NCBI GenBank assembly: GCA_051294375.1
Contig: CM119263.1
Coordinates: 29,381,134 to 29,445,133 of the forward strand
Length of the DNA: 64,000 nt
Origin: Paraspadella gotoi
Taxonomy: Eukaryota; Animalia; Chaetognatha
Reading direction: 5' to 3'
Below the pieces are notes generated by a model. It saw only the letters and a list, made by a program, of their open reading frames with translations, was not told the origin of the DNA and ran no database searches. Every line of letters begins with the position of its first letter. Positions within the stretch are counted from its first letter, which is position 1. Made by a program: the position numbers and the translations under genes. This document shows, piece by piece, positions 27,159 through 64,000 of this stretch.

Positions 27159-30100
27159 TCAGACTTTGCGGACGAACGCCACAACTTCATCCATGAATTC
27201 AGCCGGTTTTTGAGAGTGGACCCAATGTCCGGCTCCCTGCGGATCGGATTTGTTTCTTCGTTTGATTGTTTCAATAAAAGTGACGATTGTCAGCGATATT
27301 CCGCCCGATTAGAAAAGATGAGCTCTTCTCACCTGTAAGTGTTTGACGACGGCTTTCGGGAAGAAGCGACGAATGTCGGGCAAATCCTCGTCGGTCACGT
27401 AAGAAGAATCCGCACCGCAGAGGAACAACGTTGCGTCTGCAAAAAATTAAATGATTAAACAAATTACTAATGTAACAAATTTAAAGTTAGTAAATATTAA
27501 ATAGCTTCGTGCATCATTTTACTTCATAAAATGATCCTAATGATAAAAAAAGTGACCACCAAATATCCGCCTTCGAACGACTAACACTCCTCAATCCACA
27601 ACTATTACTGCTTAACACGTGACCGACCGACCGACCCCCCCCCAATAAAAAAAATCGAAAATAAGAGACCCACCTTTATAATTTTTATGAGGTAGGGATT
27701 CGGGGAAAAGCATAATGTTCATGAATTCGTTGGCGAAGGCGGTCAAGTTGACTCGGAAGCAAAAAGGGGAATCTCCGTCGGCCGCGGGCACCTGATATAA
27801 ATGTTGATGTTGTGGTTCGTCAAAGGTCAAACACGTTCGAGTTACCAAATTCATAAAATACAAAATAAGTTTTATTAATTAGTATACTTGCCAGAAAAAT
27901 AAACGCAAATTAAGTTTTTTTTGATGGGATGAAGTAGATCAATTAACTCACCGGCCAGCCACACGTCACCGAACTATCTTTAGCTGAGAGGTTCGTCAAA
28001 AGGAAAGCCCGGATGCCGGCCTCAGGCGCCGTCCACGTCAACTGCTCGTCCGCTTCTTTTCGCGCCTGAAAAAATAACAGAAGTACATAACACATAGCAA
28101 TGAATTAAACACGGAAACTTTTCATAAATTGTTTTACGCTTTCTTTGCGTGGATTAAAAGATAGAAAAAATCAAAGCGGAAAGAGTGCCACTTCTCAATC
28201 TCAAATGACATAATTTGTGGGAAAGTCTTTTTTTGGCAGTAACAATGAGTAACATCAAATACAATTGAAACATTCTTTGAAACATTATACTCTAACAAAG
28301 TCAAGGGTAAGATAGCTTATTTATTAAATGGATGGATAATTTTAATATTGGTTGTACCAATATCATTTCATTTAAAAAAATCTTAAAAGCATAAGGATCG
28401 TCGCAATCGCATGAGAAAAATCTGGATTGACGACAAATTTTGATACTAAAAAAAATGAAATTTGAGAAAAGAAAATTAATTTATAAACAGAAAGAAAAAG
28501 AATAAAAATGAGAGAAAAAATAGAAAGGAAAAAGAATAGAAAGGAGAGAAAGAAAAAGAAGGTAAGAAAGAATATAAAGAAAGAATAGAAAGGAAAGAAA
28601 GAATAGAAAGGAAAGAAAGAATAGAAAGGAAAGAAAGAATAGAAAGGAAAGAAAGAATAGAAAGGAAAGAAAGAATAGAAAGGAAAGAAAAAATAGAAAG
28701 GAAAAAAGAATAGAAAGGAAAAAAGAATAGAAAGGAAAAAAGAATAGAAAAGAAAGAAAAAAGAAAAAGGAAAAAAAGAATAGAAAGGAAAGTAAAAATA
28801 AAAAAGAAAGAATAGAAAGGAAAGAAAGAATAGAAAGGAAAGAAAAGAAAGAATAGAAAGGAAAAAAAGAAGAGAAGGAAAAAAAGAAGAGAAAGGAAAA
28901 AAAGAAAAATAAAAATAAAAAGAGTGACGAGAAGAAAGAACGAAATAAAAAACCGATGTTGTGATAGCAAAATGATAACATGCACGAATGCGATGCCTAA
29001 TTTTACGAGTTCAATCATAATTCAATTTTTTTTTTAATAAAAACGCAGAGAGAGAGAGAGAAGCCAAATCGTTTTCGGATGAATCAGCAGAAGCAGCAGG
29101 AGAAGAGAGAGAAAAAGAGAGAGCCCCTGCAGAGCCCAAGGAATCAGCGACTGGGAAAAAGAGAGAGAGAGAGCTACATATAATTAAAAGAGAAAAGAGA
29201 GAAAGAGACATGAAAAATAAAAGTAGAGCAAATTTGTTTGTTTTGATAAAACGTAAACAAAACGTATTTAATAAACGTCCTCACCCAATTTCAAGGACCT
29301 CGATGATGAGAAGCTGTATATGAATTTTCAGCTTCATACACCCAAATTTAATCTTCAAAAAGGCGATCTATAAATTGGAACGCCGACGATGACAACGACG
29401 ACGACGACGCCACTTATGTGCAAAAGCGTTACGATATCGTCGCAAAGCGATTGCGACGATAAAAAGAAAAGGTCGAAGCTCTCCAAAAACCTCTTTCACC
29501 TGTGACATGGTGAGTGACGAAGATGAGAGCTTGATTTTCTTCATGGCTTCGATGTAGTTGGGGATGATGCCGATGGAGGAACTGATTCGCGGAGAAATGT
29601 CACCGACGATCAGAGCCTCCACGAGCTCTGGTCGAGTCAGCGCTAGAGTCATCATAATTTTCCCTGAAATATTTAAAATAATATATATTATGTTTAAAAC
29701 ATTAAACCGACAATCATTGGTCAAATTTAGTACATTTTCTAATGCCGGCCTCGTTACCTCCCATACTGTGCCCCAACATGATGGCTTTTTTTAGGCCGAC
29801 CCCTTCCATGTAAGCCGATACGTCCTCGGCCATTTCCGGATAAGTCATGACGGGTGAGTGAGGACTGTCACCGTGATTTCTCGCGTCTAACGTAATCATC
29901 GTTCGGTTTAATCTGTCAATGGACAATTGGACATATTGACGTCAAAATGGACAAAAGTGAGTCTTAAAAAAATCCGCACAACTCGCCTTTGGCTCAACGA
30001 CTTGGCGATCGAGGTCCAGTTCTGTTTGCTCCCGAAAATTCCGTGCAAGATGATGACGGGAGAGGGATTGCTGGTGGCGGAGGGCGGATCGCCGAAGACA

Positions 30101-30406
30101 GTGTGAGAAAGGGTCACCGCGGTTCGAGCTTGACACCATTCTCGGCCGGCTTTCTCTTGAGGTTAAAAAAAAAAGGAAAATTTAAACGACACGTACCATA
30201 TAAGAAACCTCAATAAATCTAGCTATACCAAATTTAATATTCGATATATTTAACAACAATCGTTTGACAATTTCTACTTATTCTTTTACCAAATCGCGAT
30301 GGACGCTCCAAATCGCCAACTCTTTCGGCTTCAACCGTTCGAAAAGCCTCCGACCGTGACAACTGTCGAATATTTTCGACAGGAGTTGTCTACTAGAGTT
30401 CAGCAT
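27159..30406 (-). CDS. ABHD11: Alpha/beta hydrolase domain-containing protein 11 (mitochondrial)
   Basis: Exons give an MLNSSRQLLSKIF.. basic presequence, ILHGIFGSKQNW, LDARNHGDSPH, GHSMGGKIMMTLAL..VGDISP, FRVNL, and GAGHWVHSQKPAEF..RKV* (TGA 27159-27161). Confidence 0.92.
28374..29466 (-). mobile_element. DINE-1/HINE-like non-autonomous Helentron-associated element (ABHD11 intron)
   Basis: Subterminal IR atcgtcgcaatcgc/gcgattgcgacgat, adjacent partial IR hairpin, (GTC)n microsatellite, terminal CTTA..TAAG stem then T-run, internal 18-bp array (aaagaatagaaaggaaag)n. Closely similar ends recur at 40.1 and 46.2 kb. Confidence 0.7.
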
Positions 30407-30518
30407 GTCTAAAATTAAAAATCTAGAAAAAGGATTAAACATCCGGTGACATTAAGAAATAATAATTCGGGACTCAATTTCTTAAGAAAAAACAGAAATA
30501 TACGTGCGTGTATAATAC

Positions 30519-31264
30519 AGAAGGCTTCATATTATAAAATGTGGTACCCATTTTTTGTGACCAGAATCTGTTCCCATCAAACTACCCGATCAAATTTAAT
30601 GAAATTTTACATTTAGAGTGCTAATGACTATATAAATGGAACTATCGAGGCGAATTTTGATATTCAACCCCTGACAAGAGATACAGGGCCCTGAGGGTGG
30701 ACCCCTGGGGCGCCAAAAAATGCTAAAATTTTTTTTTTCATTTTTCAAAAATTGTTAGTAGCATCAGGTGCATTGACGTTTTAAACATAAGAAAAAAACA
30801 TTTTAGAACTAAAATTGATAAATTTGCAATAATTAAACATGGTTGAAGAAGCATGGTTCATCGTTTTACTTCCAATTTTCCCAAATTATTCCAAATCTGA
30901 CCAACTACTGACGTTCACGAAGCTAAAAATTGAGGTAAATGAATATTTTTTAGGTAATGAATACGTTTTTGTGGAAGAGTAAACGTCTGTGCAACTGTTC
31001 AAAACAAAAATAATAAAAAAATTTGAAAAAATTTTTGACCATTTTTTGCCCCCATGGGTGACCCCCCGGGGGGCCCATATCTCGGCTCAGCGGTCAAATA
31101 TTGAAATTCGCCTCGATAGTTTTATTAGTATTCACATAGGGATCGTTAATTCCAAATTTCAATACATTTGGTCCAGTAGTTTTCTCGGAACGTGTTCTGG
31201 TCACAAAAAAGGGGTACTGTGGAAATACCGCCTCAGTACCACATTTTATAATATGAAGCCTTCT
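30519..31264. mobile_element. Foldback MITE between KRTCAP2 and ABHD11
   Basis: Perfect 29-bp TIR agaaggcttcatattataaaatgtggtac extending into ~200-bp imperfect inverted arms; AT-rich flanks; superfamily not assigned. Confidence 0.75.
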
Positions 31265-31329
31265 ATATATCTATTTTCACTAGACAAAAACGGAATGTTC
31301 CCGACAAAAGCGGGGTTTAAACTAGTCGA

Positions 31330-32184
31330 TTATTTTCTCTTCTTTTTCTTCATGGCGTCGAGGTCGGCGCCGGCGGCGAGGACGGGCACGGCGTACTTGG
31401 CCGCCGCCAACCGGTTGATGAAGAAAGTGGCGGCGAGACAAGAGATGAGGCAGACGGTGACGCAGACGCGGTGAACCATGCCCGAGGCGAAGAGGGAGAG
31501 ACCCACGGCGATCGCCACCTGCCGCGGGCAGAACGATTATCTTTTTAACTCAGCAAGGTTTCACTGGATTCACGTTAGATCTTTTAATTATATCAATAAA
31601 TAATTATAAATCTAAATGAGCTGAATCTAAAAAAAAATGATTTAAAACGTGAGAAAAGGTTTAATAAAAGTAGGTATGTAAGTAACAAATCTCTGAGAAA
31701 AAACATATGGGGGCGTCTGGGGGATATGCGGGCATAGCAATATAATAGTAAATAGTAATGCAAAATCATTAAGAAAAACCGAATCAAAAAACGCCCAACA
31801 AAAAATGAAATCGATACAAAATCCACAGGAGATTAGGAAACAATCTACAATCGTTCTCACTGCCAGCTACTCTCTCACCTCGGGAAAAATTTTAGCTTGA
31901 AATCCTCGACCGAAAATGGCCATCTCCAAATTACTGATGGCCGTCAATAGGAAAACGAAGAGCTGAGAACCTTGAATGACAGGTTAAAATTCACATTAAT
32001 GAGCAGGTTTGTAATCAACGCATCCAAGAATCCAATCTAGCAATTTCAAGTCACCGAGAAGGCCTCCCACGATGGTTCCCCACTTGGTAGACGCTAGCGG
32101 GACTTTGTACAACTGCATCCCGGCAAAGACGACCAACGCGAGAGTTATTGCCAGCAGGAAGCTGTTGTAAGAGCTCACTGCCAT
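31330..32184 (-). CDS. KRTCAP2: Keratinocyte-associated protein 2 (OST subunit KCP2)
   Basis: Three phase-compatible exons: 32055-32184, 31879-31970, 31330-31518. [60 protein letters not shown]-terminal KKKKRK. Confidence 0.93.
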
Positions 32185-32379
32185 TTTTGACGGTATTTAC
32201 TAGTTTTCACTGACAAGCTGTAAGGAAAATCGGGAAGTCGAGTTTCGATAATGAACATTTTTCACGATGATCAAACACAAAAGTTATGAAAGTATAAACT
32301 AATTAATCCGCATATAGAAAAAAATTACACTTTCGCAGTAAAAATTCCCAATGTTTATTGTTTAATCGTCAGATAAGCT

Positions 32380-35300
32380 TTATTTCCTTTCCAATTCGAT
32401 TCCAAAAATGGTCTCCAGCGTCGCGGGCAACTCTTTCAGGTCGGCGATCCTATGACAATCGTCTCTGGCGCGACATTCGGCGTCACGCGCGGCGTCTTCG
32501 TCGGCGGCGTCGACCCAAACTACGGCCTTGGCGCCCGCCTCGATGGCGACGCGAACGTCGGTCGTCCAATCGTCGCCGATGACGACGGTCTCGCTCAATG
32601 AGACGCCGAGACGCGACGCGGCGAAGCGAAGGGATTCGGGGTCGGGCTTTTGCCAGGGATGGTCGCCGCAGACGATGACCGCTTCGAAGAAGGACGGGGT
32701 GCCCGTTCGCTTGCCAACAAAATGGAACAAAAGTAATCAAGGATGTCCACGTATCCAGGACCTTCAAAGGTCTTGTGACAAAAACATACGCTAAAAGTCA
32801 CACTTAAAATATTAGCCTTAACTGTAATTAAAAAGTTTGGAAATATGATCAATTGATGATTCATAAACTTTAAAGCATTTACTTGCAACTTTTCCCACTG
32901 GACTTTGCTTGGTCCGTTGGTCAGCAAACCCAAAGCGAAATTTTTACGAAGGCTGAGAAGTAATTGTTTGACGTCATCGCTCAAAATCAAAGCTTCCAAT
33001 CTTCTCTCTTTCCAAACGTTGTAGATGGTCACAGATTGTGATTCAGTGATTTTTCCCGGACCTGAGTAAAGATTAACTCTGTGTATTCAATTTTTTCATC
33101 TAAATTTTCCAACACCCATCGATCGACTACTATGTCTATAAAATATATTCAAATTACAACAAATCAAGAAATTAAAAAAAATTTTCTCCCCCCCAAAATG
33201 TTTTTACGAAAATATTTAAATCAAAGAAATATGCAAAGCACAATTTCTACTTAAAACTAACCAGCAACAAAATTTAACTAATTTGGCGGATGCTTGAATC
33301 ACAGAAAAAATAATTATAATAATAATTGCCTGTCGTATTTTTCTTCGTAAGCAGTTATCGCATCGCATCTGCTCGTCCAGAGATCATGTGTAACATTTCG
33401 TTGTAGGGTTGTAATCAAAATTAGCCATAGATGTATATTAACGTTAATTTGAAAGCAGAGTTAGATTTAAATTTAAATTTCGGCACGGACCATTCCAGAC
33501 ACAAGGGGTCATTTTTGACAAAATGCAGTCCTTGAACATAAAGAAACCTAATCATACTAGCTTTTCAAGTTATTATTATGTAACGACTGAGAAATGAGGT
33601 AACAGAAAAAATTGTCGCTTACGAAACTGGAACAGCTGCCAAATTGTGAGTTATTTTATACACTATAGTTTTATCCCGGTTCCTGTTTTGAAAGCTAAAC
33701 ATTTTTTTTCCATGTTACCGTGACATAAGGAAAAACGCGTTTGTTTACGAAAATTATTTTTTTATTTTATTTAAGAAGAAAAAGCAACGAAAAAAAAATG
33801 TGACGACGTTGATTCGATGAAGAAAAAAAAATTTTCCCTTCCGACCACGCGACAAAAGTCAGGCGCTAGAGGTCGGAACAAATAGTAGTAGAAACAACCA
33901 CCAAAATTAATTTTTCAGTTGAAAAGTAATCAATGACGTATGGTTTAAAAGAAGGAATATAGAAACTAATTTCATTCTTTAAGATCCAAAGATATCGTTA
34001 TCCTTAGCTTTCTCTCGCTCCAAAAACTCTTTACTCCATGGAGAAAGAGTAACCAAGAATCGCGTACTTATTTACAACCAGAAGCGAAGCCTTTCTTGCG
34101 CCTCGCTTTCCCTTTTTGTTATCTTTTCTTCGGATTAGTTAATCCATTATTCTAAATACCATCGTTCCCACCCTCCCCTTAAAGTCATCCGTCAAAGGGG
34201 TTCGTCTCGTCAAGCGTTGGCGTGGCCTCGTCTAACGTCGGCGTCACGGATCTTTCTCGGCGCCTTTCCCCGACGGGATCCTCGGTTGCTTTATCTTCTT
34301 GAAGCTTGGTCGTCGTCCCAGAAGGCTGAGCGGCCCGCGTGAGCACCGCGCCCGCGGGAATCGTCAAGGTCAAGCCCCCAACCGACAACGTCAGTGGACC
34401 TGACGTCGGCGCAACGCCCCCTGCTTCCGACGACGTCGCAGAGGCACCGACGAGGTTCGGCGATCGTTCCCGACTCACTCCCGACGGAGACTCGACCGCC
34501 GCCGACTCCGAAGGCAGGGCGCCGACGCCAGACGCGCGCTGTAGCCCGGCCAGCAGCGCAGCCATAAGATCGACACCCGTCTGGGTGGGCGCGGGGGCGG
34601 AGGAAGAGGCAACTTCGCGAGGGAGCGTGGAATCGATCGTCGACGCCGTCGGTGGCGCCGCGACGTTCAGAACTAACGGGACGTCGGTCTCGCTCGGTGA
34701 CGCCATCGACGTAGCGGTGGCGTCAGCGGTGGTCAAAGTCGTCGTCTTGTCGCTACTACCCGCTTCTACTTTGTTAGGGAGTAAACTAGAAAGGAGACCT
34801 AACCCCGTAAGGCGCTGCGGACTCTCGCCGCGAGACGACGGCGCCGCCGCCGACGCCGCCGCAGCGGGCCTCGACTCGACCGGAGTATTCGCTTTACTCA
34901 ACACTTTGGCAATATTCAAAGGCAATGACAGCGAGTTGACAGGGACGACAGATGCGGTAGTCGCAGAAACAGATTTAGTAGCAGACGGTACAATAGGCAC
35001 ATCTTTATCCCCCGTAACAACAAGCGGCGAAACACATTTTCCGCCTTCAAAACCACTGGACAAAATGGCATCGGAAACAAAAGGCTTCTTCTGACTCGAG
35101 GCTTCTTCTCCAGTTGATTCCGTTGATATTCCTTCGTATCCGACAGACGCTTCTTCCTCTTTCCTCTGAGCAGAGTTCTCTCTTTTGCAGTTTTCTTTCC
35201 ACGCAGTTCCGCCGGAGAGTTCCGCCGGGGGAATCGGAGCTCCCTCCTCCATCGAAGTCTGATCCAGCTGCAGAAGCGACTCGCCCTCTCCGCTGCTGTT

Positions 35301-38300
35301 GCTGTCGTCGTAGTCCATGGCCACTTCCGGCGGGAGGGCGGAGATGGGCGGGATTTCCTCGAGCGAGATCGGAGGAGGAGAAGCGGAGCCCTTGATCGGC
35401 GGAGGTTCGATCGAGGGCGATTTGCGGCGAGGCTTGGGGGTCGACTCCACGGGAGGCTGAAAGGACGGCGTTGTGACCACAGAAGATTCTAAAATGGAAG
35501 TCTGAAAAGAAAAGGAAAGGAAGATTAGGGATGAAAAATTGATGATAATTCAAGCTCTCCTTTCACTTACCTCTTTAAAATCCTCGTAACAGACTGGATG
35601 GTAAGTCCTCTCCTTGATTCTCAGCGCGTCCTTGAGATGCCATTCTTCTTCGTCTTCGTCCCAAAATTGCTCGAAAGCCTCGCCGCATATTTCGCAGGCC
35701 TGAGAAAAGGTGAGAAAAGACTCGTTCACGAATTAACAGATTATTGTTATTATTATTTATTATTATCATCATTATTAACACTCACCGAGTCGCCCTCGCG
35801 ATCTTCCGCCACCGGGCAACTCACGATCTCGCTCTCCGCCGGCTGACGATTCGACGCCGCCATCCCTTCGAAGAAGCTCGAAGACGCTGCGAGGAAAAGA
35901 GAAACAATACGAGGTATACTTCATAAACGATCACAGTATTTCCTTGGGGTTATACTGCAAGAAATACTTCTCTAGAGGTGGAGAACCGTAGATCAATTCG
36001 AACGGCAAATGAGGAGAAATTAATGATGAATAAAATACAATATGATAGAACATAACATTATTTCACCAGAGGGCTATAAATGTCACTCCTGTGAATCTTA
36101 CCTTTGTTCAAGTGCGCTTGATCAAATGGGCAGCAATAAAAAGATTAGTTAAAGAAATATGCATATTGTAATGCCACAAAGGAGAGAGCCGTTCCCTTAA
36201 TTTTAAGGAAAATGTAACAAATTAAATTCGACCCAAAAATACAATTCTTTTGATTTGCACAAACGAATTGCTGGCTTTCAACTTTTTACTTCCCTTAGCT
36301 AAAGTTGAACATTTTTCAAACTTAGGCCTATTCAATTAAATTGTGCAGCAAACTTAAAAATCGCAATACAAATTCAAAAAAAGGAGCCTCCTCCCCTGGA
36401 TCCAACCTGCTTCGTCGAGTTCGGAAATCTCTTCAAACTGGATCCACTCTTCAAGAGCATAGTACCACTTTCGGCTGGAGGCCTTGCGGTTGGCTTCCTG
36501 ATCCCGACGGAACTGGCGAAAATGCCAGTCCAGATGCGGGGCGTAGGCGGAGGCCCGATCAGAGCTGAAACGGACCCCGCAGGTGGAGCACTGAGAGCCG
36601 CGATATAACACGGAGATAGCGCTATCGTAACGGCTGCAAAAAAAATAAAGTTTTTTTACGATTGATGATTATAAAAAGTTTTGAGAAAAAAAAAGGCCGT
36701 CAGGCCCACATTTCACGTAAACTCACATCTTGAGCTTGTTAATGTCCCAATCGAGCAACGACGGCGCCGGCTTCGTCTTTTTCATTACCGGCTCGTCGAA
36801 TCTCTTCGACTCTGGATTCAATTCTGAAAAAAAAAAAGAAAAAAAAAAAGAAACTGATAACATGTGAAAAACAGTTAAAAAAAACAAAAAAACCCAAAAG
36901 AACCGAATGGCGATCAGATTATCTCCCTGATGTTTTCACGAGGATTCATCGTTGCAAAAATCATCATTGTAAGTTAGTAAAACGCAAAATATACAATAGA
37001 AACTGAACACAAAAACCTCACCTCTCCCACTCTCCCCGGACGGCTGCGGCGTCTGATCGGCCACGAATTGAGCGTTGGTCGATACGACGCTCGAGTCTTG
37101 AGCCTCGAAATCGGGCCCGCCGGCTTTGGCGGCGTTGAGGCCCAACTCTTGCTGCTTCTTGTTGATGATGCCGGCGGCGACTAGTTTTTCGAAGAGTTGG
37201 GTGACGTCGCTACCGCCCGACGCCGGAACTGAATTAGAAATATTAAAAATATATTAAAATTACACCAATATTTGAATTTAAATTTGAGCCCGTCCTTTAA
37301 CTTCAGTCATATTCAACAAAACAACAGCACCTGAAGCCTGAGGCGGCAGCAGCAGGGAAAGAGGGTCGAGCGGCGCGGCAGGGGCAGCAGGGGCAGCTGC
37401 GGGAGCCGTCTCGGTCTGCGGCATCGCCCCGGGAACAGAGACGTTGGGAAAACCGGAAGCGGGAAGGGAAGCGCTCATGAACGGAGGCGGTTTCAATTCG
37501 GGTACATCGTTTGAAGACATCGCCGGCGGAATAGGCGGGGGCGGCGGCAGGGGAAGATCTGATTGCTGCTGCTGTTGTTGTTGCTGTTGTGAGGAAGCGG
37601 CAACAACCGTCTCGGTCGAGGTTTCATTCTTCTCCGTCTTGGCGGCCTTTTGACTCGTGGAATACTTTTTAGGCCCGTGTTGAAGGACGATAGGTTTCCC
37701 GTTTTCTGGATCAGTGGGACCTAGGATCTTGACCTCGGGGACGGGAGATTCCAACCGCAACTGATGGGTCTTCCCTCCGAACACCACCGGTCGATCCATT
37801 CCGTCAAAGTCAACGTTGAAAATTTTTCCGTCGATGATGACCTCGTGAAAAGGACCGCCTGGACCCCCAAACAAAGAAAATCGAGGCGAGAGTTAATGCA
37901 AACATATAATATGAAATATACTGACATTAGTGACATAAAACCGACCAAAGGCGGCTTCGAAGTGTCGGTGATCGATCTTGATCCGCATCGGTCGATTCAT
38001 CGGTAACGAATAAGCCACCCCGTCGACGAAGATCTCCCTCGGCGGACCATCGAACTGAATCCCGTGAGGAACTAGTTTTTGTGCCCCGAGAGGCGGCGCC
38101 GCGTTGGGTGGATAAGTGGGCGGGACGAGGACGACGGGGATCACGCCTTCGAAGGACATCTCGCGGATGACGCCGTCGATGACGATTTGACGAGGAGGCG
38201 GGTCGAAACGGATCTGATGGGTCGAACCCTGAGCAATCGTCGAGTGGGCGGGGGGGGGGAAGGGAAGAAGAAAGACGAAATTTAACGGAGTGAAAAAAAA

Positions 38301-41300
38301 ATTTAATTCAGTTTTAAAAAAAGTTCGGGCAATAACATCAGATTATCTCCCAATAATTTCACGACGCGAAACGACAAAGGATTGCATCTCGCGATTCATC
38401 GGTGCAAATGACATCACGTTTTCAAACCAAAAGCCCAAAACCAAAAACCCAAAACGACTCCCAACAACCTTGAGTAAAATGTTCCTCGGCGCGCCCCCCA
38501 GCGTCGTGATAAAGTAGTTGTCGACGAAAAGTTCGTTGGTGAATGAGTAGGCCTGAAAGGCGAAGATCTCGCCCTCGACCGGCATCCGTTGCGGCGGAGA
38601 ATCGAATCGAATCTCAAAGTGAAAATCATCGATCCAAAATTCAGTCGTGGGTCCGTTGACCCAGACGGATTGGGGTTTCCCGCCGATCACCGTCGATCGG
38701 GGGATCTCGCCGATGCGATAGACCAGCTTCTGATCGAACCAAACCTGAAAGATAAATAAATAAATAAGTTTTATTTAAATGATTAATTTAATAAATAAAC
38801 CGATGATTAAATTATCATCAACTCGCCTCCCGATTTTCAGTATCGATCCGGACGGCGATCCTCGTGTTACGAAATCTGATTCGTCGCGCCTCTTCGTTGG
38901 CGCGAACGTAAAAGGTTTGATTGTCGATAAACAACTCGTGTTGCATCGTACGTCCAACGCCCTCTCTGTAGAATAAAAAAAAAGGTAAATTTGTTATGAT
39001 ATATTTTTTACACTTAAGTTTATCCTCCTCACCTCCGACTCCCGCGCATCTGTTGGACGTTCCGCAACAGCATCCGATGCCGAGGATCCACGCCGTCCTT
39101 GAGTTGTTCCTCCAACATCTCCTTGACCAGAGGCGTTGATGGCGGACGATCGTGTCGACCACCTCCACCACCTCTGGCCGGCATGGAGAGACGAGGAAGG
39201 GCGTTGTGATGTCCTCCCTTGCCGATCGTCTTCAACGCGTCGGCGCGGAGATCGTTCTCTTCCTTGACGTCGCGATTCGGACTGGAGACGCTCGCGGTCG
39301 CGTTGGCGGCGGTGGGCTTCGATTCGCGAGTCTCCCAAAGGGGCGAATCCGCGCGTTTCGCTGTGTAGAGACGAAAGTTGGGAATTTATTATTTCTATTT
39401 AATATTTTGTTATTATTACTTTTTTTGTTTTTCTGAAAGAAAACAGAGCAAACAAATAATTGCGGGAATGGTTGCAAAAAGATCTCACGTTAATAATAAA
39501 CGTGAAACTTGAAAAATAAAAGTAAAAAAACTCACGAGCGCCTTCGCTGGGGCTGCGTCTCCCGTGACCGTAGTCGACGACTTGGGGCGCGACCTCCTGG
39601 CGCCGCCGACGAGGATCTCGCGGTTTTCGAAGATCTTGATCCTGAAGAATAAAGTGGACGGAATTAAAAAAAGACCACAGTGACAAAAGCCCCAGCACCA
39701 CTCTCCTTACCTTTAACCCTGTGGCCTTGTCGATGTCGACCAACTTGGCGACGACTTCCTTCAGCTGCTCCGCCGTCAACTTCCCCTGACGCAGCTGTTC
39801 CTCCACGGGACCCATAACCACTGCGTGTCGACCGCAAAACTCGGCAAAGTTGCCGAGAGAGGGCGGGATGAGGGGCTCGAGAGAGGAGGAAAAGGCGCTG
39901 TCAAAGAAAATTAGCGAGGTTTTAATCACGAGTTTTAGGTTTCTCTGTCGGTGAAGTAAGATAAGCAAAAAAAATTGTTACAGAAAAAGAACCATCGTTT
40001 AAAACACGTATTTTTGAAAATCAAATGGGAAACGAAATGGATTTCGTCTCTTAATTAAAAAGAAGCGAAAAGGAAGAAAAGAAGTATGAATAAAAATCTT
40101 AAAAGCATAAGGATCGTCGCAATCGCATAAGAAAAATCTGGATTGACGACAAATTTTTATACTAAAAAAAATCAAATTTAAGAAAAGAAAATTAATTTAT
40201 AAACAGAAAAAAAAATAAGAAAAGAATAAATATAAAGAAAGAATAGAAAGGAAAGAAAGGAAAGAAAGAATAGAAAGGAAAGAAAGAATAGAAAGGAAAG
40301 AAAGAATAGAAAGGAAAGAAAGAATAGAAAGGAAAGAAAGAATAGAAAGGAAAGAAAGAATAAAAAGGAAAGAAAGAATAAAAAGAATAAAAAGAAAAGA
40401 AAGAATATAAAGGAAAGAAAGAAAAATAAAAATAAAGAGAGTAACGAGAAGAAAGAACGAAATACAAACCCGATGTTGCGATAGCAAAATGACAATATGC
40501 ACAAATGCGAAGCCTAATTTTACGAGTTCAATCCTAATTTAATTTTTTTTTTTAAATAAAAACGCAGAGAGAGAGAGAGAGAAGCAAAATCGTTTTCGGA
40601 CGAATCAGCAGCGGCAGCAGCAGAGGCACCCAGAAAAAAAATCAAAAGGCAGTAGCAGAAGCAGCAGGAGAAAAGAAAGAAAAAGAATAAGCCCCTGCAG
40701 AGCCAGCTGCAGACTCGTTTTTTTCCCCTATGAATCAGTGACTATCCAGACTCAATTTTAAGCACATCGATGATGAGAAGCTGTATATAAATTTTCAGCT
40801 TTATACACCCAAATTTAATCATAAAAAAGGCGATCTATAATTTGGAACGCCGACGACGACGCCACTTATGCGCAAAAGCGTTACAATATCGTCGCAATCG
40901 CTTCGCGTTAAAAAGAGAAGGATGTTTCGAGACGAAATCGTTCAAAAAATTTTGAGCATAGAAGAAATACAATAAATGAGAACCGTAACGTATGGTTCCA
41001 GTCGGAAACGAACAACCTTGTTCATTTAAATAGAATTTAAAACAACCTAGCTATTTCAACCTGATGTTTCAAATTGAAGTCCGCGTCATTATTCACCTCA
41101 ATAACTCTCGCTTCGCCGAGGAGGCGGAAGGCACACCCGGCTTGGCAGATTTTTCCGCCGCCGACGAGGAGGGCGGCGTGAACTTTCGTAGGTCTTGATC
41201 CTCGGTTCCGAATAAATTCCTGGGATGACAAAAAAAAAATACACAATATACATCATTACAAAAAATACTAATAATTTTCACAAAACTGACGTCAGATCGT

Positions 41301-44300
41301 CTTCCTTGGCCTTTTTCTGGGGCGGCTCCTCCTTCTTCGCCACCTCCACGGACCGCTTGGCGCCGCTCTGTCGCCGCCCGGAACTGCCCGGCCGCTGATC
41401 TCGACCGGACAGGCCCGGCCCGCCTTCGACGGGAGAACGAGCCAGCGTCACTCTGGCTTCCTTCGGCGAACGCGACCGCGAGCCCGATCGTTTTGGCGAC
41501 GAAGATCTAGAACGTTTCTCGCGCGGGGACGAAGCGGAAGAGTCTCGATCGTCGCGGGGACGATCGCCGCGGGGACGATCGCCCTGACCTCGAAACTGAC
41601 GATCAGGATGAGAGTTTTGATCTTTTCGTTCGGGAGTCGATAAGGGAGACTTCTTCGGCGATGAAGACGACGACGACGACGACGACTTCTTCGAGGGTGA
41701 AGATTTCTTTATCTTCGCCTCCTTCGAGTCACGCCCACTCTTCGACGCCTGGACGCCGTTCTTGGAAGTCTTTGGCGCGGGCGTTGTCGTTGTCGTCGTC
41801 GCCGTCGTCGTCTCTTTCGCGTTCTCGTTCAAATCGAAGAGGGCGACTTTCCCTCCAAGTTTTTGTTTCTGTTTCTCCAAATCGGCGAGGATCTTTTCGT
41901 TGGTTCCTCTTTTGTCTTTCGTCGTCTTGGCGACCCGTTGCTTCTTGTTCGCGGGCGCTTTACCCTCGACGAAGGCGACGCGACGCCCGGCGACGTCCTC
42001 GTCGTCGGACACAGCCGGACTAAAGGACGCCTCGGACTCGAATGGCGCCAGAGCGGCGGCCTTGGAGGTCTCGTCGGCCCCGGGCGCGGCGTCCTTGTTG
42101 ACTAGATTGCTGGAGGATCGAGATTTAGCGGCGACGGGGGCGGCGACTCCGGCGGTCGGCGTCGAAGGCTGAACGCCGGCGGCGGCCACTTTCGTCTCGG
42201 AAGGAGATTTTTTGGGAATCTTCATGGCGGGAGGCTTGACGGCCTGAGGGAGGTTGGTCGGGATATCTGGAACCCCGGGAGGCGCGGGCTGACCGACCAC
42301 CAAATCGGCCGTCGGGCGCGAAGGGGCTTCGTTCTTCATTCCCGCTTTGGCGCGGATACGAGGATCGCGGAGATTGACGCCCGCCGGGAGGGAAGACTTG
42401 AGGGGATTTAGGAGTAAGTAGTAAGTCAAATATATATAAAAAAGATTAATCTAAATAATATATGTGGATAAGGCGCTGAAGATGACTATCCGCAACTTAT
42501 TTTACTCCCTTTAACAGCCATGGAACGGATCCTGGGCTTGGAACCAGGCCTCCAAGGCGGTTTACGGCCGTCCTCACGCTTCCCGCAGGGTAAGTACCGG
42601 GTTGGGATTGTACGCGGTACCTAGTGGTCATGAGCTGATGGCTTTACTCAATGAGCCACCGGGTCACGACTGAAGGTGTCATTGCTTATAGGCGGGGTGA
42701 ACTTAGGAACTATTTATGTAGTCGGGCATGCATAACTATTAACTAATGACTACTATTTCAAACACAACTCACCGATTCGGAAGAGTTGGCGTGCCGGTCA
42801 AGCGCCTTCCTTAACTCCTCCTCTTCCTTCGACGGGGTCTTGGAGGCGGCGGCGGCGGCGGCGACGGGGGAAGCGGCGGCGGAGGCGACGGGGGAGGCGC
42901 CGGACGAAGCCGGCGACTTGATCGCCTCCAATTTCGTCTTCATCGCCTCGAGGTCTTTCTGAAATTTGTTTTGGCACTGCTTGAGCTGCTTGGTGATCAG
43001 ACTGTGCCGAATCTGCGCCTCCACCTCATTGAGGTCCACATCGGAGGCGGGGGGCGCCGAGTTGGACTTCGGCGCCGCTTTGGCCGCCGCAGCCGCACCG
43101 CTCGAATGGTGCGGGAGTGAGGGCTTGGCGGCGGCGGAAGCGGGCTTTTACCGGGGAAAGAGAGAGTATAACGACTGTATCTTTGTCTTATCGGAACCCC
43201 TCCCCCAAATAATGAAAGAAAGTAACAAAAATTACTTGTTCATTGGTTTTATTTTGTCAGAAGGGATAATTAAAAAGCTTTCACAACAAACCGTAATCAC
43301 TAATCAGATATAATGATAAATTGATCATCTTATCTAAAAGATCAATCGAGTCACGTAAAAAAACTACCTATAAACATATACATAAGATTACATATACTAC
43401 CATTTACTACTCTATCATATCTCTAACATATCTTTAATACTCCTACTATATATACCACGTGGCCTTTGAGGAATTTCCGGTTGACGTGGATTGTGGCGCC
43501 GAGAGTGGGGGTGGGAGTGGAGGGCGGCGTCGTTGACCCAGGCGCCCTAGCGAGGAGCGGCCATGCTGGATCCATCGAGTTGCACCCCTTGTCGATGCTG
43601 TAGAGTTTCTTCTCAGGGATGATCGGGATCCAGGTGTTGCGAAGGCGGAACATGGCACTGCGAGTCGTCTCGTCCACCTGGGTCAATTTTTTAAAAAAAT
43701 TTTATGTTTGTATTTGTATGTCCACTATTAAACCCTTGCCGACCTTGTCGAAAACCGTGAGAAAGATAGTGGTGATATTTTGTAAAAATATTTCCTTATA
43801 ATTTCCTTTTTCAGGAACGTTTTTCATGATCGAATCCATGAGATAAAGGACGGGCAAAGTTTTTCCCGGCTCAACCTAATAATTAAACAAAACAAAAATC
43901 ACCGTCTTAATAATAATATTATTAATTCAAATTAGTGTTTCCACCAACCTACCCGCAAGAGACGATCTTCGATAACTTTGACGATGTCCTTAGAGAACTC
44001 GGCATTCTCCTCGGCCAACATCGTCAACACGTTAATGTGCGGCTTCGAGTTGAAGCTTAGATCCTCCAACTCTGACTGATAATCCGCGACGGCGGCTTCA
44101 CGCGCGCTCTTCTTTGTATCCATCGTCCCACGTGGAGTTTTGAGTCTCTTCGCCGAAGATCACCAATATGTCGACGGCGGCATGAGTTTCAAGGAGGATA
44201 AGGCGCGTGGGTAAGTGGCTCTTTTAAGGCCACATGATTCCTCGATCATCGATCGATCGATTGCAAAGAAAAGAGGCCAAAGAAAAAAAGATGCCAGAAA

Positions 44301-45539
44301 AATGTGCAGCGGCGCAGCGGGGAAAAAAACGATTCCGGGCTGGCCGACTAACCTCGCTTAGGTAAACAAAAGAAACGTTAATAATAATAACAATAAACAT
44401 GGTCAAGAAAACGTAACAAGAAAATCGAGGATCGGGATTGATTGAGAAAATATCATCAAGTTATTCATAATGATAATAAAGGGAAAGATTTTGGATAAAG
44501 AACAAGTTTGTTAAAAATACGTTTTAATCGCGCCCTAGTTAGTTTTATCATGCTGTAGATTCAAGCATCCCACTTCTAATAAAACATCAGACGAGAGCAA
44601 AGAACACTTTGGATAAAATAAAATGTTTTATTTAAAGACCGGTCTGCAATTTGTTTTGTTTGTTTTTCTTTTTTTTCGGCGATTGTAATATTTGAAGAGA
44701 CAGTTGTAGTATCCGGCGATCTCTCGATCTTCCTCCCTCCTATTCTCCTCTTCTTCTCTATCCTCTTCCTCTCTCGCCGATAGAGATTTTCGCATTCGTC
44801 GATATTCGATCCTTTTGTACGTTTGCCTTTTCCTCATGGAAAATATATTATGTGGTCTACGATATACTTCGTCCTCACTCAGCATAGAGGATAGAGAAGA
44901 AGAGGAAGAGGAGAATAGGAGAGAGGAAGATCGAGAGAGAGCGAGAGATCGCCGGATACTACACGTAACAGTAATTATTTATAATTATTCGCGGCTTCCC
45001 TCTCACCATACGGAGGATCAGAAATTACAAGGATCAACGTGAAAAATTATTCATATTGATCGAGAGTATAATGGCAAGCCTTGACTTTACCGAGATATAC
45101 CACCCTCCTCACGTGGCGTATCACAGCGCATTCTTTTATTGTCTCATTTGTATCGATAATTTATATAATTTATATTTATATCCCTTTTCTAATCACATAT
45201 GATTTGTAGCCTAAAGCATTGACTCTCTCAGATTGCGCAATTGCGCATGGTATCGAATTGAAAAGAAAAATCTAAAAATATCTTCGTACCATAAACCTCA
45301 TCGGCGGCAGCCTGCCACAAGGCCGCCCTCTGCCGGTCCACATCCTTGATGCCCGTCTGGCCCACTTGGCCCGCGAGTCCGGCCTCGAAGGCCCTGGCCA
45401 ATTCCTCGAGCCTCTCGTCGTCGGCGAAGGATAGATTCTGTCGGACGAAGAGCTTGGCCTCGTCGAGGGCGACCCGCCCCGCCGCCCGCGTCGGGACGAG
45501 CGTGTTGTCAAAGTCGAAGACCAACGCGCGTTCGGCCAT
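32380..45539 (-). CDS. NANP: N-acylneuraminate-9-phosphatase (HDHD4), HAD family; 12.2-kb intron 1 contains PCF11
   Basis: Exon 1 45290-45539 (FDFDNTL motif I) joins in phase 1 to exon 2 32883-33061 (LLTNGPSKVQWEK). Exon 3 32380-32710 has KPDP and VIGDDWTTDV. Junction LWQAAADEVYG|PGKITESQSVTIYNVWKERRL is collinear with human HWEEAIQETKGG..YFLWKSTRL. Confidence 0.88.
33761..33771 (-). terminator. Candidate PCF11 polyadenylation signals (overlapping AATAAA x2) inside NANP intron 1
   Basis: Plus-strand tttattttatt = two AATAAA on the - strand, ~415 nt after the PCF11 stop and ~700 nt before the NANP exon 2 acceptor. Confidence 0.4.
34185..44123 (-). CDS. PCF11: PCF11 cleavage/polyadenylation and Pol II termination factor
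   Basis: N-terminal CID (YQSELEDLSFNSKPHINVLTMLAEE; LYLMDSIMKNV; RSAMFRLRNTW; DPAWP). Zinc motifs QCSTCGVRF..HLDWHFRQ..SSRKWY..EWIQFEE and CEICGEAFEQFWDEDEEEWHLKDA..YHPVC. TGA at 34185-34187. Confidence 0.93.
40092..40915 (-). mobile_element. DINE-1/HINE-like element (PCF11 intron)
   Basis: Collinear with 28374-29466 including the 18-bp array; internal deletion and a partly degenerate right terminus. Confidence 0.7.
42505..42668 (-). mobile_element. Probable tRNA-derived SINE relic with LINE-like tail (PCF11 intron)
   Basis: Minus strand: A-box-like TGGCTCATTGAG, degenerate B-box GTACAATCC, tail GGAGGCC..CCATGGCTGT reminiscent of RTE 3' ends. Confidence 0.35.
44705..44963. repeat. Inverted repeat / MITE-like hairpin in NANP intron 1 upstream of PCF11
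   Basis: tgtagtatccggcgatctctcg... / ...cgagagatcgccggatactaca perfect 22-bp ends plus ~40 bp CT/GA arms; no clear TSD. Confidence 0.65.
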
Positions 45540-45773
45540 AATGATTATCGAGGGAATTTTAAATGTATTCAACTGTTTATTTACGGAACATCATCGCATG
45601 TAATGAGAAAAAAAAAACATTTTTGTTTCGTAGTATAAAACTATAATCATAATCGGTAGAGAGAAATAAAAACTAAATACTGAAAACGAGTTGCTTTATG
45701 AATAAAAGCAGAAGGAAATGAGGATCAGAATGCGAAATCTAAAATCTAAAACTCGAGATGATATTGAGGAAAC

Positions 45774-46409
45774 TCAAGGAATCTCTCCCGTGGCTTTCTT
45801 TCGATGGTGAACGAAAATCTTCTCCTTGAGCCATTCCTTGTCGAAAGGAAGGTAAACCATTCCCAAATTGGGAACATCCTGGGGAGGGGGAAATAGGATG
45901 GATTTTGAATAAAATTGTAAACAATTTTCAAAAATATCTTTATAAAAACATGAAACTCTCTCTTCTTTATTCACCAAGGAGCAATCTTTCGAAGTTAACA
46001 AATAACACTCGAAAGTGGACGACGCGTTCGAACCTGCAAGACGAAGACGTTGATGTCGCCGAGTCCGTCGATAAAGGACAAAAGGTCGCTCATATTGTAA
46101 TGGCTCGGGGACGAGCCAGATTTTTGGAGGTGTTCCTGCAGGAACGGGGAAGGTTTGTTCACCTATTTCTTTCAAAATGTAATAATAACATCGCAAGAAA
46201 TTTTTTTAAAAAATCTTAAAAGCATAAGGATCGTCGCAATCGCATAAGAAAAATCTGGATTGACGACAAATTTTGATACTAAAAAAAAGAAATTTGAAAA
46301 AAAAAAAATAATAAAGCACCGAGGAAAATTAAAGTTATAGTTTCTGGAAAAAAAATATTAACAAAAAATAAACTGATCAGCAGACGCAGCCCCGGAGAAA
46401 AAAAAAAAG

Positions 46410-46466
<57 letters not shown>

Positions 46467-47691
46467 AGCCAAATCGTTTTCGGACGAATCAGCAGCGGCA
46501 GCAGCAGAAGTACCCAGAAAAAGAGAAAGAAATCAAAAGGCAGAAGCAGCAGGAGAAAAGAAAGAAAACAAAAAGCCCCTGCAGAGCCAGCTGCAGACTC
46601 GTTTTTTTCCCTATGAATCAGTGACTCGTAGAGTGGAGCACTGGGGAACAAAAATTTTATTTGAATGATCAAACAAGGATATTTTAACGTGAGATAGTAT
46701 GATTAAGGAGTACAAAAAATATTTTTCTTATATTGTTTGGGGAACAGTATCATTAATTACAATATATTTATAGTAATATTCTTATAAAATCATAAATTTT
46801 CAAAATAATTTTTTAAAAATTTTAATTAAAGATTCTGATTCTTCATAAAAAGTTAGATCAAAAATATACCTTCATGTCTTCAGCGTCAAAAATGGAAAAA
46901 ACGGGTTAAATTCTCCACTTTTTATATTTTGTAGTAAAAACTATTATATGATGAAACATTTTGATCATTTTTCGCAGCTTTAACTTAAAAATATAATGTA
47001 ACATATTTTACAAAAAATCTTTTTTTTCCGGCGAATCCAAAACTATTTTTAAAATTAAGAAAATGTTTTTGAAATTTTATGATTTTATAAGGATATTACT
47101 ATAAAAAAAATTCAATTAATGATACTGTTATACAATTTTTTTTTGAAAAAAGGCTTATTTTATATTACATATACAAAGGTAACAAAAAAACATTGTTCCA
47201 TCGCTCAATCTTTTCATCACTCCACCCTAGTGACTAGGGAAAAGAGAGAGGGAGAGAGACATGTAATTAAAAGAGAAAAAAGAGAGAGAAAGAAATAAAA
47301 AAAAAGAAAATTTGTTTGTTTTGATAAAACGTAAACAAAACATTTAATAACTGTCCAGACTCAATTTTAATGACATCGATGATGAGAAGCTGTATAGAAA
47401 TTTTCAGCTTCATACACCCAAATTTAATCATAAAAAAGGCGATCTCTAATTTGGAACGCCGACGACAACAACGACGACGACAACGCCGACGACGCCACTT
47501 ATGCGCAAAAGCAAAAAATCGTTGCAAACGCTAAGCGATTGCGACGATAAAAAGATCAATTACTGTAGCAGCACCTCATAAATTTTGCCAACTCCCAAGA
47601 TGCAGTCATTGATGCTTTCAAAGTCCGTGTAACTCCTGGTGTCGGGCTTCTCCGTTTGAATCAGCAAAATGGTGTGGGTCACCCGACTCAT
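45774..47691 (-). CDS. ERH: Enhancer of rudimentary homolog, paralogue b (more divergent, ~107 aa)
   Basis: Exons 47575-47691, 46034-46135, 45774-45878: MSRVTHTILLIQTEKPDTRSYTDFESINDCILGVGKIYE|[29 protein letters not shown]|DVPNLGMVYLPFDKEWLKEKIFVHHRKKATGEIP*. Confidence 0.88.
46208..47554 (-). mobile_element. DINE-1/HINE-like element (ERH-b intron 1), carrying a nested hAT-type MITE
   Basis: Same termini and (GAC)n core as 28374-29466. Confidence 0.7.
46629..47229. mobile_element. Non-autonomous hAT-type DNA transposon (601 bp)
   Basis: TIR TAGAGTGGAG / CTCCACCCTA; 8-bp TSD gtgactcg (46621-46628) / gtgactag (47230-47237); internal inverted repeats; absent from the other HINE copies. Confidence 0.7.
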
Positions 47692-48115
47692 TTTGAACAA
47701 TGCTTTTTTAGACTAATAAATACAGTGCCTAAAAAGAAAAAAGCAATCAAAATCAGTATAACCAGTAAAAACAGGTTGACTGGCCGCGTAAATAATCAAG
47801 AGACGAGATTTGAGAATTGTTAAATCAAAGTGCTATCGATCAAATAAGAATCAATATCAAGTAACAGAGGCATGAGAAACAAAACCTAAGCCTGGCGAAG
47901 TCACACGTAAATTGCAATAAGAAAAAAATCAAAATGCGAAAACTCTGCTTTCAATTTAAGGGTCAAAAAGATGAATAAGGATAAAAAATATAAATATCTA
48001 AAGTGTAATACGAAGCTCATGCTGAAAAGCATGACAAAACGATGAAACAAACACAGAATCTCTGGTGAGTTCTCAAAATCGAAATTTGAAAAAAGAAAAA
48101 AGTCCCCAAAAGAGG

Positions 48116-48714
48116 TTAATCGGTGCGAAGGGACTCGGCCGAACCCTTTTCCTCGGCGCGCTTTCGAAGTAAAACGTAGATCTTCTCTTTGATCCATTCT
48201 TTGTCATAAGGGATGTAGCATCGATCGCGTTCCTTTAATAAATAATTTCCACGTACAAAAATATTTTATTACAGGAAATGAATTGATAAATTCATATTGC
48301 GCCATTATTTTACGGGGAGTTGAGGTTCATTCTTCTTCAAAGGAATGATAACTACACACGGGAGAATTTCTAAGCCCCGCCCTATATCACGTTCTAAAAT
48401 ATGGCGCGAACAAACGTCGAACCTTCAAAACGAAAACGTTGATGTCGCCTAGATCGTCGATGAATTTGAAAAGCTGAGAGGTGTCGTAGGTAACTTGGGG
48501 AATTCTCAGCGTTTTCGGATCGGGATTGCGAAGGTGTTCCTGCACAATAGAGAGAATATAAGTCTCCCCAATATTTTTATAAACTATCTCAGAAACGAAC
48601 CAGCACCTCGAACATATTGCAAACCCCTTCCATGCAGGCGTCCACGCTCGGAAAGTCAGCGTAACTTCTCGTTGGGGGCAGACCCGTCTGAACCAACAGA
48701 ATGGTGTGATTCAT
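48116..48714 (-). CDS. ERH: Enhancer of rudimentary homolog, paralogue a (~113 aa)
   Basis: Exons 48607-48714, 48423-48539, 48116-48232: [36 protein letters not shown]|[30 protein letters not shown]|[28 protein letters not shown]. Confidence 0.92.
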
Positions 48715-48941
48715 GATGAGTTTTTTTAATTTTTGGACAATAATCTTAGTGCCTAAACAAAAAAAAAAAACAACAAACAATTGAGTAATCCTTGATCATA
48801 AAGACATCGAAAATGAAAGAATGTCATCGCAACCGGACGCCGGTTATAAAACAACTAAATAAACATTAAACACTGAACAATAAATGGTGGAGCATTAAAG
48901 GGATTCGACCAATAAAACCGGGCGCGGGGGGGGGGAAGAGA

Positions 48942-51900: not shown

Positions 51901-52744
51901 ACTTGAAAAAAAAGTTCCGATGTAAAAAAAAAACAAAAAAACGAAAATATTCGATAGGATCTTTGTCTGACCTCTGCTTTAAGAAAAGGGTCGGCGTGAG
52001 CCTTACACAAGGTGGCGCTGAGATGCCGACCTTTGACCACGGCGCCGTCGTTGATGGAGCTGACGGCCTTCTGACGATCTTCTTCGTTGGAAAAGGTTAC
52101 GAGGGCGCCGCCGTGCCACGGAGGAATTTTTAGCTGAAACGTTAAATGAATACTTAATCAATTTAATTTTGACGCTCGAATATTCGATCGACTTGAATTT
52201 GAAAAAGGATTTAATTGTCAGAGGATTATAAACACTTTTTAATTCGATCCTAATTTGTTAGTCGGAAGCAAAAAAATATAATTGGTTTATCGATAAAAAG
52301 TGCCATATAGCCAATGAAAAAACGAAACAAATTTGTGTCTTTCACCTTCTTGGGTTCGAGTCCGCGTTTGACGAGGAATTTCTTCAATTGTGCGTATCCC
52401 GTGTGACGCGGGAGACCGTGAATCTCGATTTTAAAAATCTCGGACGTGAATTCGTCGTCTCGTTTCGTCCGCGGACGCGGATCGTCGTCGGCGACAGATT
52501 GCAAGGATTCGGAAGGATCTCGATCGCCTTCAGTTAATTCACTTTCTTCAGTATCATTAGACGCTCTTCCATCTTTATTAGATTCACAGCCAGAGGTTTT
52601 CAAGTTTTTGTCATCTCTCTCTGTCTCCTCAGTTTCCTCAGTCAGTCGACCTTCCACCTCCGCCCCCTCTCCCGATAACCTCCTCTTCTTCGTCTCAGGC
52701 CCCGAATCTATCGGCACTTCGTCGGCCGTCTTCACTGAATCCAT
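48942..52744 (-). CDS. TRMT2A: tRNA (uracil-5)-methyltransferase homolog A
   Basis: FTSEIFKIEIHGLP (RRM), YEEQL, GYRNKNEFTIG, HWRQLTVRTT, FRISPDAFFQANT, LLDVCCGTGTIG, VVDPPRAGLH, AVPIDLFPQ|TNHCELVILFER; TGA 48942-48944. Confidence 0.93.
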
Positions 52745-52889
52745 CGCGGTCCAACAAAAGAAAACTCTATGCAACAGTTGGAAAATTATAAAAAAAATAT
52801 ATTTAAATTAAAACGCCGCACGATATATAACAAATTAGGACTAGAGCGAGAGCAGGAATGTAAAAAGGCAACGACAGTTTCTCTTCTAC

Positions 52890-57704: not shown

Positions 57705-58078
57705 CTCCGATACGTTTTGTACATCGATTTTCTCAATTTGGCAACAATTATTATTAATAAAGAGAGATCGGTATGATAAATTTAAAAACAAACAACGAGA
57801 AAGGATACAAATCAATAAGAAATGGAGGATGGAGAACTCAAAACGGAAAACATAATATTTTCTAACTTTTTTCTTATTTCAATAAAAAAAAATACTGCAG
57901 TTTTTCCTCAATTTTTTTAATTCATAAAATAACTCGCAGGAGTATCAAGATGATACAATGATAAGCATTAAGAAAACGGGGGGGGGGAAACGTTTTACAA
58001 ATTGAAATGGAAATAGCAATAACGAAATAAGACTAGAACTACCGAATCGAAAGCGGAATCGTTCATCGACCGATAGGG

Positions 58079-60280: not shown

Positions 60281-60520
60281 GATCGACCGTCAACGAAAGA
60301 AGTCTACATCTTCTATCAAATATATTTTTAAATATCTATAAATCGTAAAAAGCATTAAAGTTAAAAATATGACACCGAACGAAAATATCTAGGCTTTTTT
60401 TTTTTGACTTAGCAAAGCGCAGTTACTTGAGCTTATCACCAAGGAAAGTCTGCTTCAAAAAAGGCGTTTTAAATAAACTAGTGTCCAATAATTTAGTGTC
60501 CAAGGAAGACTTTTTCCTCT

Positions 60521-64000
<3,480 letters not shown>

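Follow-up and report, generated by a model that had tools for sequence, protein, structure and literature searches.

Introduction

Genes that lie on the same strand within an intron of another gene have been described in several animals. In C. elegans, three exons of unc-17 are placed inside intron 1 of cha-1, and at unc-60 a whole series of exons stands between exon 1 and exon 2B (PMC3875643). The genome of the ctenophore Hormiphora californensis, a trans-splicing animal with a leader on 56% of full-length reads, holds 2357 nested genes, many of them parallel to the host; its authors state that such genes need a complex system and leave the matter there (PMC8527503). In the glass sponge Aphrocallistes vastus, 2432 nested genes are accompanied by a leader (PMC10282587). 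The present work concerns 64,000 nt of the chaetognath Paraspadella gotoi (assembly GCA_051294375.1, contig CM119263.1, positions 29,381,134 to 29,445,133), referred to below as the window, in which exons 1 and 2 of a gene for an N-acylneuraminate-9-phosphatase (NANP) enclose a complete PCF11 gene of the same orientation. The initial annotation had presented this arrangement as undescribed, a claim that the nematode loci and the many parallel nested genes of the ctenophore precede; its premise that nested genes are mostly antisense shrinks to a slight antisense bias in a mammalian survey of all biotypes (PMC11694760).

NANP as the host gene

PCF11 is complete, has the orientation of NANP and lies wholly between the consecutive NANP exons 1 and 2, the position asked of a nested intronic gene in PMC8527503; this is confirmed. 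The coordinates given initially for both NANP exons, for the phase 1 donor and for the 12.2-kb intron all hold, on the minus strand (Table 1). The three NANP exons join into a frame of 759 nt (252 aa) with no internal stop. The donor of exon 1 reads G/gtacga; out of three neighbouring positions tried for the start of exon 2, the frame is open only from 33061, and ATTAAA and AATAAA follow 14 and 21 nt behind the stop. The join is in frame, as had been proposed, and its description as gap-free is nearly, though not strictly, correct: 1 of the 12 gap positions in the alignment with chicken NANP (78 of 244 residues identical, 32%; E 3e-37) is a single-residue indel at the exon 1/2 joint. Residues D9/D11, T131, K164 and D189/D194 align with the chicken protein, which places motifs I–IV in one frame; the names of these motifs (I–IV: DxD, T/S, K, GD..D) follow the usual HAD nomenclature.

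The Pfam Hydrolase profile is covered consecutively by exon 1 (positions 2–52; HAD 1–66), exon 2 (87–131; HAD_2 66–113) and exon 3 (136–191), with exons 1 and 2, taken singly, scoring under the curated cut-offs. Compared with solved structures, exon 3 has N-acylneuraminate-9-phosphatases as its top matches (E 1.6e-9), and over the full length of the protein the closest named relatives are the same enzymes. A profile of 80 full-length relatives gives 203 bits to the joined protein, 170 to exons 2–3 alone and 30 to exon 1 alone. In all six frames of the window this profile matches just the three NANP exons (E up to 9e-8; the next match has E 2.4), which leaves NANP without a second candidate for exon 1 or exon 2 in its surroundings, and the idea that the two halves belong to separate broken copies finds no other piece in the window to build on. 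The three-exon gene thus looks like an intact NANP-type HAD phosphatase with all catalytic motifs kept, its activity being predicted from the sequence. Neither half would work alone, since exon 1 carries motif I, with its catalytic aspartates, and the sole in-frame Met, and motifs II–IV fall to exons 2–3, which contain no in-frame ATG. Unspliced read-through from exon 1 reaches a stop after 103 codons. The GC content at third codon positions (GC3) is 0.84 in exon 1, 0.49 in exon 2 and 0.75 in exon 3.

A HMMER search with exon 3 returned 456 matches, of which the top two (38–39% identity) are both fragments. In one of them, P0001, the similarity begins exactly at the exon 2/3 border, which suggests that the intron position is shared with NANP. 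Word-indexed protein searches gave no match, an atlas search with exon 1 returned bacterial HAD fragments and nothing else, and a metagenome scan for synteny, covering 80 of 156 loci, contained no locus with a PCF11 match.

The nested PCF11 gene

The initial annotation placed a full multi-exon PCF11 at 34185–44123 in NANP intron 1, and the gene model bears this out with 19 exons encoding 2016 aa. The frame has no internal stop; 17 introns are GT-AG and one is GC-AG, the GC donor of the model belonging to intron 10 (at 38827). The Clp1-interaction domain (PF11526) and Pcf11_C (PF21936) score above the cut-off, and the CID (PF04818) is a fragment match on one exon, below the cut-off (E 0.001). 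Introns 1–5 are present as splice joints, exactly as modelled, in one 4763-nt contig of the public RNA run X1; the 13 introns 6–18 are modelled from sequence. NANP exon 2 follows the predicted poly(A) signal of PCF11 at a distance of about 700 nt.

Host intron, spacer and splice sites

The 27 ordinary introns modelled in the window measure 64–1199 nt, against 12,228 nt for the inferred host intron. Splice-site scores come from a matrix built on just these 27 local introns. On this scale the NANP donor scores 4.5, in the weaker third (7 of 27 ordinary donors are lower), and the acceptor of NANP exon 2, with 7.5, scores highest of the 51 AG sites that follow the PCF11 stop. The 1166 nt from the NANP donor to the PCF11 ATG contain 58 AG sites, and the top one is an acceptor at 44357, modest at 3.9 bits, which has no donor of its own and is a candidate site of leader addition. 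Joined in cis to PCF11 exon 1, NANP exon 1 would have its frame ended after 148 codons, before the PCF11 ATG; joined to PCF11 exon 9, 13, 14, 15 or 17 it would stay in frame and yield chimeras with neither the NANP active site nor the CID.

The spacer between the NANP donor and this acceptor contains AATAAA at 45140 and 44632 and ATTAAA at 44528; two AATAAA against 0.67 expected is not a significant enrichment. Neither of the spacers flanking PCF11 matches another part of the window. A hairpin element with purine-rich arms, probably a small transposon, occupies 44705–44963. On the other side of NANP exon 1, the AATAAA behind the upstream ERH2 gene precedes the NANP ATG by a mere 40 nt or so (45540–45581) and is directly followed by the only AG before this ATG; formation of the ERH2 3′ end and of the NANP 5′ end may compete there.

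RNA contigs

One of three candidate runs (X1, its type being guessed) matched the stretch, in 0.69 of 948 words, and its spliced joints show that it contains spliced RNA; runs X2 and X3 matched low-complexity bits alone. The X1 contigs, which carry no information on RNA start, strand or level, were compared over 40600–46350, and the statements made here refer to 24 of 1585 pieces and 18 of 303 loose ends listed. The PCF11 contig begins with letter 44356, immediately behind the top-ranked AG. This start probably marks a branch point in the assembly graph, located at a splice acceptor. In that case the last letter of the other path into the branch is not G, which would exclude NANP exon 1 (it ends in G) and fit a leader with another last letter, as in published chaetognath leaders, which end in A (PMC2481426). 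The contig start is a hint, taken from one contig end, of leader trans-splicing. The maturation of PCF11 by trans-splicing from within the intron, put forward in the initial annotation, survives in this form, as a hint in an operon-like setting. The PCF11 contig contains no letters of NANP exon 1, so that the first exon shared by both products of a cholinergic-type locus was not found in it.

The spacer is covered by contig 4 down to 44911 and by contig 3 from 44781 to 44364, and is uncovered at 44782–44910 and 44357–44363 among the pieces listed. Bins with PCF11 intron 3 and the last ERH2 intron, across which contigs join, have no or almost no depth beyond the exons; the spacer, by contrast, is covered.

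The operon-like run and a second nesting

NANP and PCF11 belong to a run of 11 co-oriented genes, two of them nested. The names EPRS, TRMT2A and ABHD11 are putative ones for genes with broader Pfam matches. Distances from stop to ATG in the run are 240, 374, 145, 227, 424, 234 and 195 nt, five of seven being below 250 nt, the spacing used for calling operons in PMC12460157. No plus-strand gene was recognised in 27159–64000, where no dedicated screen was made. KRTCAP2 follows NANP at 195 nt and has, 33 nt ahead of its ATG, an unpaired acceptor of 13.4 bits, the best of six. A search of the window for the pattern of a chaetognath-type leader gene gave no match.

About 10 kb from NANP/PCF11 the same anatomy recurs on the same strand: a complete two-exon gene for an S-adenosylmethionine (SAM) methyltransferase, presumably ETFBKMT/METTL20-like, is nested in CDK5RAP3. 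The nine exons of the host form an open frame of 526 aa, in which Pfam PF05600 is matched at positions 344–390 before the host intron and at 426–486 two exons on; the exon between contributes 33 aa for the 35 profile positions in between. An acceptor-like AG is found at 55005, 2 nt ahead of the methyltransferase ATG. The 168 nt from the methyltransferase stop to the host acceptor contain no AATAAA. With 2 of the 11 genes of the run nested in parallel, nesting points to a property of the genome rather than an accident.

Table 1. Coordinates of the features discussed (positions in the window)
Feature	Position	Strand	Remarks
NANP exon 1	45290..45539	-	250 nt; ATG; HAD motif I (D9, D11); 83 codons + 1 nt
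Inferred NANP host intron	33062..45289	-	12,228 nt; removal as one intron deduced from the protein
NANP exon 2	32883..33061	-	179 nt; motif II T131-N-G; acceptor AG ends at 33062
NANP exon 3	32380..32709	-	K164, D189, D194; stop TAA
Spacer, NANP donor to PCF11 acceptor	44357..45289	-	933 nt
Unpaired splice acceptor ahead of PCF11	44357..44376	-	candidate leader-addition site
PCF11	34185..44356	-	19 exons; ATG 44123, stop 34185; 2016 aa
PCF11 exons 1–10	44356-43953, 43875-43744, 43677-43456, 43144-42773, 42396-41291, 41219-41097, 39897-39711, 39641-39536, 39360-39033, 38965-38827	-	
PCF11 exons 11–19	38744-38469, 38228-37946, 37858-37331, 37228-37022, 36823-36727, 36633-36407, 35886-35786, 35699-35571, 35501-34185	-	
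PCF11 predicted poly(A) signal	33761..33771	-	AATAAA twice, overlapping, 414 and 419 nt past the stop
Operon-like run	27159..64000	-	11 co-oriented housekeeping genes
Order of the run (nested genes in brackets)		-	prolyl-tRNA synthetase, MLST8, CDK5RAP3 (methyltransferase), TRMT2A-like, ERH1, ERH2, NANP (PCF11), KRTCAP2, ABHD11-like
CDK5RAP3	52890..57704	-	9 exons in an open frame of 526 aa; the host intron (1577 nt) spans 55509-53933
SAM methyltransferase gene	54101..55002	-	two exons; 277 aa; complete; nested same-strand in CDK5RAP3

Two tandem, clearly diverged genes for enhancer of rudimentary (ERH1 and ERH2, three exons each) occupy 45774–48714 on the minus strand; their middle exons were considered as mutually exclusive exons of one gene and rejected as such, as they belong to the two tandem genes. 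The contig that carries ERH2 (contig 4; 47729) is 28 letters longer than the exon model, counted from its acceptor, and the extra letters may be a leader or upstream genomic letters. Copies of an intronic repeat family are found at 28400–29450, 39990–40900, 46220–46620 and 47260–47550, two of them with long TTCT-rich tandem arrays (28489–28921 and 40201–40434); the summed depth of X1 contigs is high at the copies compared. An element with terminal inverted repeats (30530–31240) is situated between KRTCAP2 and the ABHD11-like gene. Outside the packed run, behind a long gene-poor upstream stretch, a long minus-strand reading frame at about 14100–17300 contains zinc fingers that by eye are of C2H2 type.

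Proposed processing of NANP and PCF11

The preferred reading, to which a probability of about 0.45 is given, is that NANP and PCF11 come from one operon-type precursor processed in either of two ways. The architecture on which it builds is directly shown and confirmed from sequence and, in part, from RNA: two open gene models, splicing of PCF11 introns 1–5, tight co-oriented packing and the second nesting. From it we infer the mechanism, namely a shared precursor, a leader, the NANP junction and the either/or choice. In the usual fate of the precursor, a leader would be trans-spliced to the unpaired acceptor 44357 and the RNA cleaved near 33770, which together would free PCF11. In a rarer fate, a precursor escaping both cuts would splice 45290 to 33061, discarding PCF11 with the intron and giving NANP. 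Use of the PCF11 acceptor in cis would be prevented by the weakness of the NANP donor, 933 nt upstream. NANP would have to avoid or survive three events: the joining of its donor to a PCF11 acceptor, the cut at 44357 and the cut at the PCF11 poly(A) site. The initial statement that it must skip every PCF11 splice site is too strong, as splicing of the internal PCF11 introns within the host intron need not harm NANP. Under trans-splicing, an inserted gene would need just an acceptor and a poly(A) signal; the dispensable promoter would explain why nesting is cheap here.

Several observations weigh against a precursor with two fates. The RNA evidence consists of contigs of one run from one study, which possibly used the window's own material, and a contig across two genes does not show a single transcript. 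The contig with NANP exon 1 (contig 4) enters it spliced from ERH2, continues unbroken past the NANP donor and ends at 44911; there is no loose end at this donor among the 18 of 303 listed, no leader letters occur in the X1 contig rows listed, and the junction 45290–33061 is not seen in the X1 contigs covering the exon 1 side. On this last point the silence of the contigs neither shows nor excludes splicing, as rare junctions can drop from contigs. Acceptors are weak ahead of MLST8 (1.3), CDK5RAP3 (3.8) and TRMT2A (4.6), and at ERH1, ERH2 and the methyltransferase another AG outscores the one closest to the ATG. The 25 longest of 372 inverted pairs include no long complementary arms flanking PCF11 that could loop the gene out.

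The missing arms count also against an alternative in which a single passage of the polymerase yields both messages: PCF11 would be cut out by trans-splicing and 3′ cleavage, and NANP exon 1 would stay on the polymerase until joined to exon 2 across a discontinuous intron. Here no pairing arms that would hold the NANP halves together were found among these inverted pairs, acceptor 33062 would compete with the leader, and no description was found of an exon held through 10 kb and 18 other splicing events. The alternative is unlikely on balance. It has the merit that no 12-kb precursor needs to survive two cuts and 18 rival acceptors; moreover, an operon polymerase runs past poly(A) sites, KRTCAP2 follows closely behind NANP, and splicing across a cleaved intron has been reported for transfected constructs (Dye et al. 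2006, as cited in PMC4410947). As the nested passenger is the termination factor itself, the PCF11 level could, in such a single pass giving NANP and PCF11, determine the distance that the polymerase covers in PCF11's own operon; this extension is somewhat less likely still. A shade more doubtful than the single pass itself is the view of two independent, ordinary nested genes, with PCF11 driven by its own promoter in the 933-nt spacer and no trans-splicing involved. The spacer leaves room for a promoter, the listed contig rows are free of leader letters, and in mammals host and nested genes are mostly unrelated in expression (PMC11694760). This view is opposed by the PCF11 contig, which starts exactly behind the best acceptor, and by the gaps of 145–240 nt between most neighbours, where little promoter room is left.

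Two further explanations deny NANP a function or the locus its structure. NANP could have been broken recently by the arrival of PCF11 and be dead or nearly silent, its exons being yet undecayed; this would account for the unseen junction, the contig unspliced at a donor of the weaker third and the early stop on read-through. It is nevertheless improbable, given 252 open codons, all catalytic residues, splice sites in phase, a poly(A) signal right behind the stop and high GC3 in exons 1 and 3 (exon 2 is the lower one), and the second intact host in the window suggests that the genome tolerates nesting. An assembly error that set PCF11 between the NANP exons could draw on the two gaps in contig cover of the spacer and on the PCF11-to-exon-2 side lying outside the compared interval. 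It would require two exact mis-joins, and two more for the second nesting, in a window with no N, where the agreement of X1 contigs with ERH2, NANP exon 1, the spacer and PCF11 exons leaves 0–1 other letters per piece; such an error is very improbable.

Comparison with known systems

A literature search joining nesting with trans-splicing, spliced leader or operon found no paper; subscription journals and supplements may hold precedents. The accessible text of PMC1657053 contains nothing on same-strand nesting. From the main text of PMC12460157 the word ‘nested’ is absent, and three of its supplement files (the gene table is possibly elsewhere) have no match to PCF11, NANP, CDK5RAP3, ETFBKMT or ‘nested’.

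The locus offers a clean test of how a cell obtains both messages from same-strand nested genes, the problem that PMC8527503 names without solving. The host protein needs a join across the nested gene, the nested gene encodes a core 3′-end factor, and about 10 kb away there is a smaller twin, its host intron measuring 1.6 kb. Release of nested genes by leader trans-splicing, if it occurs, would account for their tolerance in compact trans-splicing genomes. Automatic annotation may split or miss such host genes.

Vertebrate PCF11 limits itself via a poly(A) site in its intron 1 (PMC6458999). The locus of P. gotoi is similar in having poly(A) signals upstream of the bulk of the PCF11 coding sequence, candidates for early termination by PCF11; unlike in vertebrates, these candidate signals stand ahead of the whole PCF11 gene, in the intron of another gene. 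The two spacer AATAAA, a number not significantly above chance expectation, could serve the same self-limitation.

As in the spliced-leader operons of chaetognaths, where co-oriented housekeeping genes less than 250 nt apart are resolved by leader addition (PMC2481426, PMC12460157), the genes of the run are closely packed; the longest operon of PMC12460157 has nine genes, against 11 here including the two nested ones. The nesting also recalls Hormiphora and Aphrocallistes, whose leader trans-splicing genomes contain many nested genes, many of them parallel in the ctenophore. With unc-17(VAChT)/cha-1(ChAT) and unc-60 it shares a same-strand multi-exon gene or exon series in a first intron, an expected switch-like processing and a first donor that must be kept until a far acceptor appears. 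At the nematode loci exon 1 is common to both products, which have linked functions or are homologous, whereas in P. gotoi the coding exon 1 belongs to NANP only and the proteins are unrelated; the nested gene extends over 10.2 kb in 19 exons, compared with 759 nt of host coding sequence, and apparently starts at an unpaired acceptor. The locus is an extreme form of known same-strand gene nesting, probably tied to operon-type processing.

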